This document shows positions 43,242-47,059 of a DNA stretch of 64,000 bases, piece after piece (position 1 is the stretch's first letter; each line of letters starts with the position of its first letter). Position numbers and translations under genes: made by a program. Where the stretch lies: positions 4,320,001 through 4,384,000 of the forward strand of contig OZ242010.1 in NCBI GenBank assembly GCA_965204745.1, written 5' to 3'. The notes below the pieces were generated by a model, which did not search any database, was not told the DNA's origin, and was given only the letters and a program-made list of their open reading frames with translations. Source of the DNA: Candidatus Latescibacterota bacterium. Lineage in GTDB: Bacteria; Latescibacterota; UBA2968.

Positions 43242-43487
43242 ACACGAGAAAGGAGGTGGTCGAATGAGTGACATGACCAGTGGAGGTGACTGTCGTTAGG
43301 TGCGCCCGCCAGGAGCGGAGACAGCATCTCGAAATGGTAGCGCGCCTGGCAATCCAACACAGTCATCGAGCGGTTCGTTATCTGCCACATCGGCGATTTT
43401 GATGATCGCGAGGCAGAAACGCCGTCAGACGAAGCGCCGCACGGAGATGGGTTGATTTTTCGACATCCGCCGCGCGGCGTTTTTTGT
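43242..43487 (+). ncRNA. Candidate structured RNA containing an 11-codon sORF
   Basis: Own promoter; SD AAAGGAGGTG plus ATG 43264 (MSDMTSGGDCR*); stems ccagg..gcg/cgc..cctgg and cgg.cgtt.tctgcc/ggcaga.aacg.ccg; ends in a GC hairpin plus T tract. Confidence 0.55.
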
Positions 43488-43499
43488 TGGCTTTCTAAC

Positions 43500-43527
43500 T
43501 TGACAAAATTGGATTATCCTGTACCTT
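43500..43527 (+). promoter_or_regulatory. Probable rplM promoter
   Basis: TTGACA-16 bp-TACCTT about 50 bp upstream of rplM. Confidence 0.5.
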
Positions 43528-43579
43528 CAAAAACTCCATTGCCCACAACACACATCGAGTTAAGCGAGGAATTGAAACG

Positions 43580-44011
43580 ATGAGGACACCGAGTGCAAAA
43601 AAAGGTGATGTCGAACAAGTCTGGTATGTCGCCGATGCAGAAGGCAAGGTGCTCGGGCGATTTGCCAGTGGCGTAGCTCGGATTTTGCGCGGCAAACACA
43701 AGCCCTTTTACACGCCCCACATTGACGCGGGGGATCACGTGGTGATCGTCAATGCGGAGAAAATTCGGGTCAAGGGCAATAACAAAGCCCGGCAAAAGGT
43801 TTATACGAGTTACAGCGGGTATCCCGGCGGGCTGAAAAAGCAGACGCTGGAAGACGCGCTCGAAAAGCGACCCGCATTTGTTCTCGAGCACGCGATTCGG
43901 GGCATGTTGCCCCACAACAAATTGGGCCGGCAAATGATGAAAAAGGTCCGGATTTACGCCGGCCCGGAACACCCACACCGCGCTCAGTCTCCCGAGCCAA
44001 TCGATTTGTAG
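43580..44011 (+). CDS. rplM: 50S ribosomal protein L13
   Basis: WYVADAEGKVLGR, LRGKHKPFYTPH, SGYPGGLK. Confidence 0.98.
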   Translation: MRTPSAKKGDVEQVWYVADAEGKVLGRFASGVARILRGKHKPFYTPHIDAGDHVVIVNAEKIRVKGNNKARQKVYTSYSGYPGGLKKQTLEDALEKRPAFVLEHAIRGMLPHNKLGRQMMKKVRIYAGPEHPHRAQSPEPIDL

Positions 44012-44066
44012 AGGAGTTAACGTCTTGTATATTGTTGACTATTGTTGTTTATTTATCGTGTTGTCT

Positions 44067-44654
44067 ATGGCGTATGTAAATACTCGCAAAGCGGTTGCTT
44101 TGCTTGGCGTTCATCCGAGCACATTGCGTAGGTGGGCGACTGACGGTCGGATTGAGCACATTCGTAGTCCGGGTGGTCGGAGGCTTTACAATGTCGATGC
44201 GTTCTTGCGGGAAGAAGTTGGGGTTGTGTGCTATGCACGGGTCAGCAGTTATGCCGAAAAAGACGACTTGCGAGGGCAAGTTGCACTCTTGCGATCCCGT
44301 TATCCCGAAGCAGAGATCGTCAAAGACATTGGGGGAGGTCTCAACGGGAAGCGGAAAGGCCTTGTTGCCCTACTGGAACGCTTACACAGCGGAGAGAAGT
44401 TGCGAATTGTGGTTGCCCACAAAGACCGTCTTGCAAGGTTCGGCTTTGAACTTATTGACTGGCTGGCAAAGCAAAACGGGGGCGCGGTCATGGTTCTCGA
44501 CGAGTCAAGTTGCAGTCCGGAACAAGAACTCACGCAGGATATTCTGTCCATTCTCGATTCGTTCTCTTGTCGGCTGTACGGACTCCGCAAGTATCGTGAC
44601 AAAATCGAAAAAGATAAGACTCTCTCTGACAAGCGAGCAGAAGGCGTTGGTTAA
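44067..44654 (+). CDS. tnpA: IS607 serine-recombinase transposase
   Basis: N-terminal MerR-like HTH (LGVHPSTLRRW...SPGGRRLY), YARVSS, DRLARFGFEL, FSCRLYGLRKY. Confidence 0.95.
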   Translation: MAYVNTRKAVALLGVHPSTLRRWATDGRIEHIRSPGGRRLYNVDAFLREEVGVVCYARVSSYAEKDDLRGQVALLRSRYPEAEIVKDIGGGLNGKRKGLVALLERLHSGEKLRIVVAHKDRLARFGFELIDWLAKQNGGAVMVLDESSCSPEQELTQDILSILDSFSCRLYGLRKYRDKIEKDKTLSDKRAEGVG

Positions 44655-45738
44655 GGTCTGGTTGGCAGGTAGCCGTTGGTGGTATAACGAGGCCGTGTCG
44701 TTGTATCGTGCGGGATTTTCCGTATCCGAGTATGAGATGCGTGCTCTTGTTCGTGCGGTGAGTCCTGAGTGGTTTGCGGATGTTCCGAGCAAGATATTGT
44801 GCGGTGCGATAGCAGATGCTCACAAAGCGAATCAGGCCGTCTGGCGTAAGCGGAAAGCGTTGAAGAAGAAAGGGATAAAGCGGAAAGTGATGCTCCATTT
44901 TCGCAGTCGTAAATGTCCTGTTCAGTCCTTGTATTTGTGCCATGTGGCGTGGAACAAGGCATTGACGACATTTTATCCGCGTCGTCTTGGCAATGTTCAT
45001 CTCTGCGAATCATTGTCTGTTGTTCCGAAGGATGGTCGTTTGGTCCGTCACAATGGGCGTTACTATGTGACGGTTCCCTATTCAAGTCCACGGCGCGTAA
45101 CCGAGAACCAAGGGCGCGTCGTGGCACTTGATCCAGGTATTCGCAGTTTCTTGACGTTCTATTCCGAGAAGGATTGTGGTAAGATTGGCGAAGGTGATTT
45201 TGGTCGTATTCAGCGTTTGTGCGTTCATCTTGACGGGTTGATCGGTCGCATGACAAAGGCTATCGGATTTCGCAAGGTGCGTTTGAAGCGTGCCTGCCAT
45301 CGCATGCGGTGGCGCATCCGAGATTTGATAGATGAACTACACAAACAGACGGCTCGCTGGTTGGTGGACAACTACGATGTGATTCTGTTGCCCACGTTTG
45401 AAACGCAGGATATGGTACAGCGTGGCAAGCGTTGCCTTCGTCGTAAATCTGTTCGCAGTATGTTGACCTTCGCCCATTACCGCTTCAAGCAGTTTTTGAA
45501 GCACAAAGCATTTGAGACAGGCAAGTTGGTCTTCGATGTGAATGAGGCATACACGTCCAAAACAGTCAGTTGGACAGGCGAGCGTGTGAAGAACTTGGGC
45601 GGTGCTAAGGTCATTCGCAGTCGGATAGATGGTCAAGTAATGGATCGAGATCTAAATGGCGCACGGGGTATTTTTCTCCGTGCTTTGGGCGATACACCCA
45701 AGTTGCGCAACTGCTTGGATGCAACTTGCACTGGTTGA
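44596..45738 (+). CDS. tnpB: IS607 TnpB RNA-guided nuclease; start uncertain, frame open back to 44095
   Basis: KSKKIRL, RuvC-I VALDPG, VNEAYTSKT, RuvC-III MDRDLNGARGI. Confidence 0.92.
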   Translation: MTKSKKIRLSLTSEQKALVKVWLAGSRWWYNEAVSLYRAGFSVSEYEMRALVRAVSPEWFADVPSKILCGAIADAHKANQAVWRKRKALKKKGIKRKVMLHFRSRKCPVQSLYLCHVAWNKALTTFYPRRLGNVHLCESLSVVPKDGRLVRHNGRYYVTVPYSSPRRVTENQGRVVALDPGIRSFLTFYSEKDCGKIGEGDFGRIQRLCVHLDGLIGRMTKAIGFRKVRLKRACHRMRWRIRDLIDELHKQTARWLVDNYDVILLPTFETQDMVQRGKRCLRRKSVRSMLTFAHYRFKQFLKHKAFETGKLVFDVNEAYTSKTVSWTGERVKNLGGAKVIRSRIDGQVMDRDLNGARGIFLRALGDTPKLRNCLDATCTG

Positions 45739-45789
45739 ACACTTATTGACGAGTCAATAATGGTCAACAGAAAGGTATCAGGTGATATT

Positions 45790-46185
45790 TTGGCTATTGA
45801 ACCCTTGAGTTCTGCCACCGGGCGGCGCAAGACCTCGACCGCGCATGTGAAACTCTATCCCGGCACGGGCGCGATCACCATCAACGGGCATTCCGCCGCC
45901 GATTATCTCAAGCGAGAGACGTTGGTGATGATCATCGAACAGCCCTTAGACGTGACCGAGACCCGCGGCACCTATGACATTGTCGCCAAAGCAAAAGGGG
46001 GCGGTTTGACCGGTCAGGCCGGCGCCGTGCGATTGGGCATCGCGCGCAGTTTGCAGCGCGTGAACGAGGCCAATCACCAACCCCTTCGCGGCGCGGGATT
46101 GCTCACGCGCGACCCGCGCAAGGTGGAGCGCAAAAAGCCCGGGCAACCCGGCGCACGCAAAAAATTCCAGTTTTCCAAGCGTTGA
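45790..46185 (+). CDS. rpsI: 30S ribosomal protein S9
   Basis: [32 protein letters not shown]...QFSKR; TTG start at 45790. Confidence 0.97.
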
Positions 46186-46219
46186 GTTTTTCCCAATCCC
46201 CGCGCGGAATGGGGCAATA

Positions 46220-46300
46220 TTCCACATGCATCCCGATTGTCGCATGGGTGCTTATCGGCAATGCGGCGAGCCGAGGGGTGCAGAGGCCAAACCCAATGGA
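46220..46300 (+). promoter_or_regulatory. rpsB (S2) leader RNA
   Basis: Position, plus the pattern cacatgcatccc...gggtgc...ggggtgca-gaggc-aaac with a tgcatccc/ggggtgca stem. Confidence 0.6.
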
Positions 46301-46306
46301 GGTCAC

Positions 46307-47059
46307 ATGGCGGTTGTTTCGATGAGGCAATTGCTCGAATCGGGCGTTCACTTCGGGCACCAAACCCGGCGGTGGAACCCCAAGATGCGGAAGTACATTT
46401 TTACAGAGCGCAATGGGATTTACATCGTCGATCTGCAAAAGACGCAGGCGCGAATCGAATCCGCGTATCAAGTCGTGCGCCAGATGGCAGAGACGGGCCA
46501 ACCGATTCTGTTTGTCGGCACAAAAAAACAGGCCAAAGACATCATCGCAGATGCCGCAGAACGCTGCGATATGTTTTTCGTCAACAACCGCTGGCTGGGC
46601 GGCATGCTGACGAATTTTCAAACCATTCGCCAAAGCATCCGCAGGCTGGACGCGCTGGACAAAATGGCCGGCGATGGCACTTATCAGCAGTTGACCAAAA
46701 AAGAAGTGTTGCGCCTCGAGCGCGAGCGCGACAAGTTGGAAAAATCCCTGGGCGGCATCCGCAGCATGGGGCGGTTGCCCGCACTCGTGTTTGTCGTGGA
46801 TACGAAAAAGGAGAGAATCGCCGTTGCCGAAGCGCGCCGCTTGGAAATTCCCATCGTGGCGGTCGTGGATACCAACTGCGATCCGGATGAGGTGGATCAC
46901 CCCATTCCGGGCAATGACGATGCGATGCGGTCCATCGCGCTCATTACGAATTTGATGGCCGAGGCCGTGCTCGAGGGCAACACCGTTCGACAGGATGAAC
47001 GGGACGCCGCGCCAACCACGGGCCCCGAGATTACGGAAATCGATCCCAGCAACAATTAA
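46307..47059 (+). CDS. rpsB: 30S ribosomal protein S2
   Basis: [35 protein letters not shown]. Confidence 0.98.

Follow-up and report, generated by a model that had tools for sequence, protein, structure and literature searches.

An IS607-family element inserted inside the Shine-Dalgarno sequence of rpsI in a Latescibacterota genome

Results

The window analysed here is a stretch of 64,000 nucleotides (nt) from Candidatus Latescibacterota bacterium (assembly GCA_965204745.1, contig OZ242010.1, positions 4,320,001 to 4,384,000 of the forward strand), in which the ribosomal protein genes rplM and rpsI are separated by a mobile element of the IS607 family. The rplM gene, encoding ribosomal protein L13 (43580..44011, + strand; Pfam PF00572, E=1.6e-44), ends with the stop codon TAG at 44009-44011 and is directly followed by the motif AGGAG (44012..44016, +), which empty sites, the ambiguity of the joint and other copies define as the left flank of the element and as the 5' half of the native rpsI Shine-Dalgarno sequence (SD). 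The element itself comprises 1765 bp (44017..45781, equivalently 44015-45779), as delimited by contigs that skip it and by the empty sites of relatives, and lies in the same orientation (+) as the rplM-rpsI operon. It is followed by rpsI, encoding ribosomal protein S9 (45790..46185, +; 131 codons; Pfam PF00380, E=1.5e-46), with its native start codon TTG at 45790-45792. The last two bases of the left AGGAG (44015-44016, +) represent the crossover core AG, which recurs at the right end (45780..45781, +), where it is preceded by ATC to give ATCAG, a motif that differs from AGGAG at positions -3 and -4.

A first-pass annotation of this DNA had already proposed an IS607 element with TnpA and TnpB between rplM and rpsI, which is borne out by the MerR-type helix-turn-helix, resolvase and TnpB domains found there, and the junction strings it quoted are literally present in the window. 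It had placed the insertion exactly at the rpsI start codon, so we looked for uninterrupted alleles. The rpsI gene was looked up in 40 related genomes, of which 29 loci were displayed, 20 from the same genus and nine from more distant relatives. In all 20 congeners the rplM TAG is followed by AGGAGGTGATT.T, then (T/G)TG and GC.., without any insertion, and rpsI starts at the same position, with TTG in 19 genomes and GTG in one; the nine more distant loci likewise show a short, SD-bearing spacer free of insertions. Logan contigs of four public runs (X1, X2, X7 and X9) were furthermore aligned to window positions 43580-46185. Contigs of X2, X7 and X9 join 44014 to 45780, skipping exactly 1765 bp with a placement ambiguity of 2 nt. 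In X9, a single contig of 2485 nt continues 220 nt past the joint at ~99% identity, with 1 and 4 mismatches on the two sides, the X2 contig reaches 38 nt past the joint at a depth of 90 and with 0 mismatches in rplM, and the weak X7 joint is followed by just 28 nt. Contigs of X1 span both occupied junctions and contain no empty joint; as X1 may be the sample that the genome came from, it was not counted as independent support. The empty site reads TAG-AGGAG-GTGATATT-TTG, and the insertion point falls between AGGAG and GTGAT, splitting the SD 8 nt ahead of TTG 45790. The empty site holds the AG core once, the occupied allele has it at either junction and shows no target-site duplication, which is the pattern that a serine recombinase crossing over at a 2-nt core should leave. 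Near-identical genomes differ in carrying or lacking the insertion, which, together with eight dispersed copies in the genome, points to a mobile element.

These data move both breakpoints. By coincidence, a TTG stands 8 nt after AGGAG on the left and 8 nt after ATCAG on the right, which is why the breakpoints had been misplaced behind the two TTG codons, 11 nt off on each side. The sequence alone would permit such a crossover at the start codon, whereby the left TTG (44025) would be the former start of rpsI, and a new SD, AGGTGA, and start context would come from the element's right end. We give this version practically no credence: the empty allele of the 20 congeners and of the near-identical contigs is AGGAGGTGAT..TTG and not AGGAG-TTAACGTC-TTG, the 1765 bp skip runs from 44014-44016 to 45780-45782, and excision at the TTG codons gives a sequence found in no relative. 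TTG 44025 is element DNA, since the string TAACGTCTTGTA recurs in another, truncated left end elsewhere in the genome. Conservative recombination keeps the native sequence, for which reason the AGGTGA of the right junction is native as well; GTGAT belongs to the host and AG alone is shared with the element. The search for empty alleles and other copies that had been proposed to fix the ends therefore yielded the empty allele, with element ends other than those first given. An in-frame ATG at 45760, highlighted as a further start feature, was rejected as a conserved alternative rpsI start, as four of the eight copies read AATAAGG or AATAAGT at this place.

The 16S rRNA of the genome ends in ...GGATCACCTCCTTTCT, which makes the native rpsI SD AGGAGGTGAT a perfect 10-nt complement. 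At the right junction, AG joined to GTGAT gives AGGTGAT, a 7-nt complement of the 16S rRNA at unchanged spacing to the native TTG 45790, so that the insertion shortened the SD from 10 to 7 nt. Judged from this comparison, the translation start of rpsI is not rebuilt; the gene simply keeps the latter half of an SD of unusual length, and this length is probably what leaves rpsI translatable. The open reading frame (ORF) of rpsI is intact, and it is the sole rpsI copy found in the studied genome (one match in G000, as this genome is labelled; other G numbers denote related genomes and L numbers element copies). A terminator scan of 43300-46400 gave terminator-like matches at chance level, and transcription of rpsI by read-through from rplM across the element appears likeliest.

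Eight TnpB-bearing copies of the element were found in the genome, the seven further ones being 78-87% identical to the rpsI copy. Six of the eight carry tnpA and two are tnpB-only, one tnpB is frameshifted, and right-end and left-end fragments are present besides. The left flank is AGGAG in 7/8 copies and GGAG in 8/8, while the right end is ...AAAGGTATCAG (ATCAG) in seven copies and ...TCTG in L006. The core is AG in 7/8 copies, so the canonical IS607 core GG, which sister lineages use, is not found here. That AGGAG is host sequence, namely the SD of the gene concerned, and not part of the element is evident from the relatives' uninterrupted loci at two further targets: AGGAG, 9 nt and ATG precede the DUF6807 gene in 7/7 relatives' loci, and an SD of the AGGA(G/C) type precedes the sulfatase gene in 6/7, with AGAGGG in G001.

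At nine of the eleven right-end junctions in the genome, a start codon that opens an ORF of at least 60 amino acids (aa) lies 6-9 nt past the core, compared to 1483 of the 6368 AGGAG sites of the genome judged by the same criterion (23%; binomial p ~7e-5). Among the downstream ORFs, five of seven tested are recognisable genes (DUF433 twice, sulfatase, DUF6807 and ExbD), the Pfam domain beginning at residues 4-11 in four of the proteins and at residue 87 in the DUF6807 protein. The two DUF433 target genes are located at G000 212069.. (copy L002) and 609062.. (L012). At L007 an ATG follows at 8 nt, opening an ORF shorter than 60 aa.

Several further observations concern these copies. L004 (G000 2875032-2876814, - strand) and L007 (G000 about 3119528-3120986, +), one with tnpA and the other tnpB-only, both follow GGAGGAG and are followed after 8 nt by the ATG of a small MYFFDFLSNRRE... 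ORF. Duplication of one segment is an unlikely origin for this pair, with flanks 86-87% and elements 77.5% identical, which suggests independent insertions at the same SD. Right-end-only remnants at G000 1110365 (+), 2785251 (-) and 609073 (-) lack TnpB in tblastn searches; a gene start follows 6-8 nt on in each of them, and two of the three carry the variant ...AAAAGGAACAG.

Beyond this genome, a sister lineage in four congeners encodes TnpBs ~55% identical to the one studied here and has a GG core, right ends of the form ...AAGGATCGG and purine-rich left flanks (..RAGG); a start codon is located 4-11 nt downstream in 7/10 of its copies. In the wider clade, for which 502 relatives were confirmed, the best 80 come mostly from cyanobacteria, with Latescibacteria and Caldilineaceae in addition, and the right ends read ...GTATCGG. 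Of 73 distinct junctions in this clade, 16 are followed by a start codon at 4-11 nt, compared to 8.8% of the GG sites in the same flanks. As these 16 are mostly from non-cyanobacterial hosts, we do not claim a start-codon bias for the clade as a whole.

The left-end non-coding region of the element (44017..44066, +) contains the TTG at 44025-44027 and the hexamer GTTGAC at 44034-44039. It precedes tnpA (44067..44654, +), which encodes a serine recombinase of 195 aa (MAYVNTRK...) scoring 170.3 bits against the NCBIfam IS607 transposase equivalog NF033518 (cut-off 110), with an N-terminal MerR-type helix-turn-helix and a Resolvase domain in Pfam. Its ATG at 44067 is conserved in 6/6 tnpA copies, none of which has an SD of its own at this codon. 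In the rpsI copy only, TTG 44025 follows AGGAG by 8 nt and lies in the tnpA frame without a stop, so the host SD could in principle drive a TnpA lengthened by 14 residues. The first-pass proposal that the original rpsI SD and TTG now open the tnpA frame hence holds for the AGGAG half, which does sit 8 nt before a TTG in this frame, and fails for the TTG, which is not that of rpsI. TTG 44025 was rejected as a family-wide tnpA start, as in the other five of the six tnpA copies a stop interrupts the frame 2-13 codons ahead of the conserved ATG; by this comparison the in-frame extension is a peculiarity of the rpsI copy and not a design of the family. All eight left ends offer an ATG, GTG or TTG 0-8 nt past the core, at 4-8 nt in six of them. 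In five of the other seven copies these codons open a start-stop or very short ORF (ATG-TAG in L006, GTG-TAG in L004), the GTG of L002 starts a longer ORF that is out of frame, and the only such codon of L008 is an ATG immediately at the core. The left ends of the eight copies are interrelated, and the shared start codons may be due to chance. Subterminally, the left hexamer GTTGAC has an inverted counterpart at the right end, GTCAAC (45765-45770), and in the relatives CTAAC adjoins the left core and the right end carries repeats of GTTAGC. We infer that these are likely TnpA-binding repeats.

The GTG-started tnpB (44596..45738, +; 380 aa) overlaps the end of tnpA by 59 nt. Its product scores 103.2 bits against NF040570 (guided_TnpB, cut-off 100) and contains Cas12f1-like_TNB and OrfB domains. 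In an alignment of ten homologues, seven from the studied genome and three from congeners, the RuvC triad D180 (ALDPG), E318 (NEAYTSKT) and D353 (MDRD.NGA) is invariant in 10/10. The sole significant match in a sequence search of the PDB was the Fanzor2 L79 (9b0l, E=3.3e-21), with the triad aligning to its DPG, NE..T.KT and DRD.N; no chain of the ISFba1 group, whose TnpBs recognise AGGAG, was detected in this search. Judged by the motif definition alone, the pro-Fanzor signature is present, consisting of DPG in RuvC-I and a Glu six residues ahead of the zinc-finger position. Unusually, the zinc-finger cysteines themselves are replaced (YTSKTVSWTGE...IRSRxDG; residues 321-346, window ~45556-45633), and the replacing residues are invariant down to 52% identity. 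Combined with a second peptide pattern, the peptide YTSKTVSW matched 585 stretches in the genome collection.

For the RNA component, the last 150 nt of the element were aligned across 27 diverse copies and compared to 500 shuffles; this analysed region (45632..45781, +) contains the predicted omegaRNA or right-end element RNA (reRNA) scaffold. Compensatory changes are seen both in a hairpin at 45661-45683, within the coding end of tnpB, and in a long-range helix formed by GATAC (45691-45695) and GTATC (45775-45779). Paired cells amount to 96.5% compared to 86.3% in shuffles, with 39-59% in slid controls, and double-change cells to 54 compared to 14.9, the observed values being reached in 0/500 shuffles. 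This covarying structure fits an omegaRNA scaffold ending at the core dinucleotide. Searches against Rfam, covering 43300-46500 at E<=1 and 45450-45830 at E<=10, detected neither RAGATH-18 nor a group I intron nor any other family of relevance, in line with the earlier description of the element as intron-less. The sole matches were a chance hit to a miRNA model and a sub-threshold t44 RNA at 46205-46292 (+), just upstream of rpsB (27.8 bits compared to a gathering score of 44, E=0.005), which may be an S2 leader.

By analogy to published IS607 cases, and as the left AGGAG differs from the right ATCAG at -3 and -4, AGGAG would be the target-adjacent motif (TAM) of this TnpB and the guide would begin at 45782 with GTGATATTTTGG..., the mismatch at -3 presumably protecting the right end from self-cleavage. 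The guide-matching target of ~16-20 nt, positioned from the IS607 and TnpB literature, is predicted at 45782..45801 (+) and would cover the residual SD GTGAT (45782-45786, +) as well as the rpsI TTG. As had been proposed, a guide derived from right-flank DNA would match alleles that lack the element; its predicted start replaces the one formerly assumed at the GCT codon (GCTATTGAA...).

Discussion

We consider it probable that an autonomous IS607 element integrated at the AG of the AGGAG in the rpsI SD, that its AGGAG specificity places copies at gene starts, and that rpsI was preserved by its long SD. In this explanation, the 1765 bp element with its serine-recombinase TnpA, TnpB and omegaRNA-like 3' scaffold would have entered by conservative crossover at the AG of AGGAG, the first half of the extended rpsI SD AGGAGGTGAT. 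AGGAG would serve as the integration site of the lineage and, judging from other IS607 elements, also as the TAM of TnpB. Since AGGAG is both the SD core and strand-specific, copies would come to lie co-oriented with host genes and 6-9 nt before their start codons. The rpsI mRNA would arise by read-through across the element and be translated from AGGTGAT, while at the left junction AGGAG would stand 8 nt before the element-borne TTG, which in the rpsI copy falls into the tnpA frame by chance. Upon excision, TnpB-omegaRNA would cleave the restored AGGAG followed by GTGATATTTTGG..., and repair would draw on a sister copy that is still occupied, so that the element would be retained; this corresponds to the published role of TnpB, in which the vacated site is cut and the element copied back from an occupied chromosome.

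Several findings weigh against this explanation. Gene starts were judged by ORF length, which is a proxy for genes, and the eleven junctions are not independent, as the flanks of L004 and L007 are paralogous and DUF433 genes were hit twice. L006 (G000 1988245-1989994, -), the sole one of the eight TnpB-bearing copies not ahead of a gene start, lies within a coding region, in its 3' end, at two Glu codons (GAGGAG) and has TG for AG on the right. In L008 (G000 ~754900) the left flank is TGGAG, and ~25 nt are missing there compared to congener G016, between ...gcaggttGGA and the AGGAG SD, which may represent a small deletion after insertion. Furthermore, a promoter scan of 43300-46400 found no sigma-70-like promoter on the + strand, including within the element. 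All four zinc-finger cysteines (CxxC...CxxC, between RuvC-II and RuvC-III) are absent in the ten TnpBs, so nuclease competence is not assured, and without a RAGATH-18 match the element does not belong to the TnpB group for which an AGGAG TAM was measured.

The cysteine loss gives some room to the idea that TnpB is a guide-dependent DNA or RNA binder without nuclease function, similar to TldR, which modulates the gene downstream of each copy. Purifying selection on the cysteine-less proteins is evident in all ten homologues and the guide would span the target gene's ribosome-binding site; yet the RuvC D, E and D are invariant, TnpB remains linked to tnpA in 6/8 copies and mobile, and the published TldR repressors are described as nuclease-dead, which makes this idea improbable. 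A less remote alternative, though one we hold only tentatively, is that the insertion is a recent and mildly deleterious accident of one strain, in which rpsI is impaired, the allele is bound to be lost and nothing is selected. The empty site in near-identical genomes of other runs, the lack of the insertion in all 20 other genomes of the genus, the cut of the SD from 10 to 7 nt and the missing prediction of an outward promoter all agree with such an accident. On the other hand, rpsI is intact and present as the only copy, and the X1 contigs show the occupied form alone; moreover, this alternative is compatible with AGGAG-directed integration as outlined above and differs on fitness only.

Whether placement at SDs is itself an adaptation is a separate question. 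The AGGAG/AG specificity might have evolved to land between host SD and start codon, giving the element host transcription, a host SD for the left-end start codons or tnpA, and tolerated sites. The 9/11 junctions set against the 23% baseline would agree with this, as would the sister lineage, in which 7/10 copies lie 4-11 nt before start codons in spite of the GG core, the 16/73 compared to 8.8% of the wider clade, the start codon 0-8 nt past the core at 8/8 left ends and the lack of an SD of tnpA's own. The same bias can, however, result from AGGAG specificity combined with the loss of insertions within genes. The right end restores no SD and keeps AG only, left-end start codons are in the tnpA frame in the rpsI copy alone, and the bias is weak in cyanobacterial relatives, with copies that are not independent. 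We therefore regard an adaptive origin as rather unlikely. Equally doubtful at present is the extended proposal of a Latescibacteria-borne branch of pro-Fanzor IS607 elements specialised on SDs, with the SD core as both TnpA target and TnpB TAM, whose co-oriented copies would sit between host SD and start codon, be fed by the host promoter and SD by way of the left-end start codons (in the rpsI copy, the TTG in frame with tnpA), and use the host ribosome-binding site as guide. If true, this specialisation would pit translation of the host mRNA against maturation of the guide, in the present case for an essential ribosomal protein.

Returning to AGGAG-directed integration as the preferred explanation, the target motif equals the SD core, whereby copies in this genus are placed in ribosome-binding sites, and one of them, polymorphic between near-identical strains, occupies the ribosome-binding site of the essential single-copy rpsI. 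An AGGAG-type TAM would steer elements into ribosome-binding sites and always in sense orientation; full-text literature searches returned no relevant paper on such steering of IS607 elements. The corrected anatomy also alters the predicted guide, the TAM and the account of rpsI translation. Since strains that are nearly identical naturally carry the locus with and without the element, it offers a ready test system for the SD requirement of an essential gene, for read-through across 1.8 kb and for the competition between guide and translation.

Compared with known systems, the rpsI insertion is a new case of a familiar type, in which an IS607 element combines a TnpB of the pro-Fanzor type with a target of the AGGAG type; its interest lies in the bias towards ribosome-binding sites and in rpsI apparently making do with half an SD. 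It shares the DPG and Glu signature with pro-Fanzor IS607 TnpBs and Fanzor2, and its relatives are mostly cyanobacterial, as reported for most carriers of this signature, defined as DPG and a Glu six residues before the zinc finger, in the parts of bioRxiv 10.1101/2023.08.09.552727 considered here, which also ascribe a zinc finger to many and not all TnpBs and a GGG TAM, compared to CGG at the right end, to ISXfa1. Unlike those proteins, its TnpB has the cysteines replaced (TVSWTG...), its host is Latescibacteria-like, and AG core and AGGAG take the place of GG. The ISFba1 group resembles it in its TnpBs of ~387 aa, the AG-rich motifs beside the left end and an AGGAG TAM like the flank of the rpsI element; according to the passages of PMC11061315 considered, the TAM measured for RAGATH-18-associated IS607 TnpBs was 5'-AGGAG in 18/22 strains and GAGGG in 4/22. 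These passages do not mention ribosome binding or the insertion site, and in contrast to that group the rpsI element has no RAGATH-18 match at E<=10.

The closest mechanistic parallel is offered by CboIStron of Clostridium botulinum, of which the portions of bioRxiv 10.1101/2023.11.20.567912 used here report that the IS607 TnpA excises scarlessly and integrates at TGGG containing the GG core, that the TnpB TAM equals the TnpA target motif, with the right-end TCGG escaping cleavage by its C at -3, and that altered IS607 cores are tolerated experimentally. Both elements combine a serine-recombinase TnpA with TnpB, carry a 2-nt core at both junctions and have a right-end motif that differs at -3 and a guide that spans, or here would span, the junction with the host gene. 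The rpsI element differs in its core AG and motif AGGAG, compared to GG and TGGG, and contains no group I intron, so it is not an IStron. In CboIStron, expression of the host gene and formation of the guide compete with each other; at rpsI, the corresponding conflict would set the guide against a ribosome-binding site instead of a splice site.

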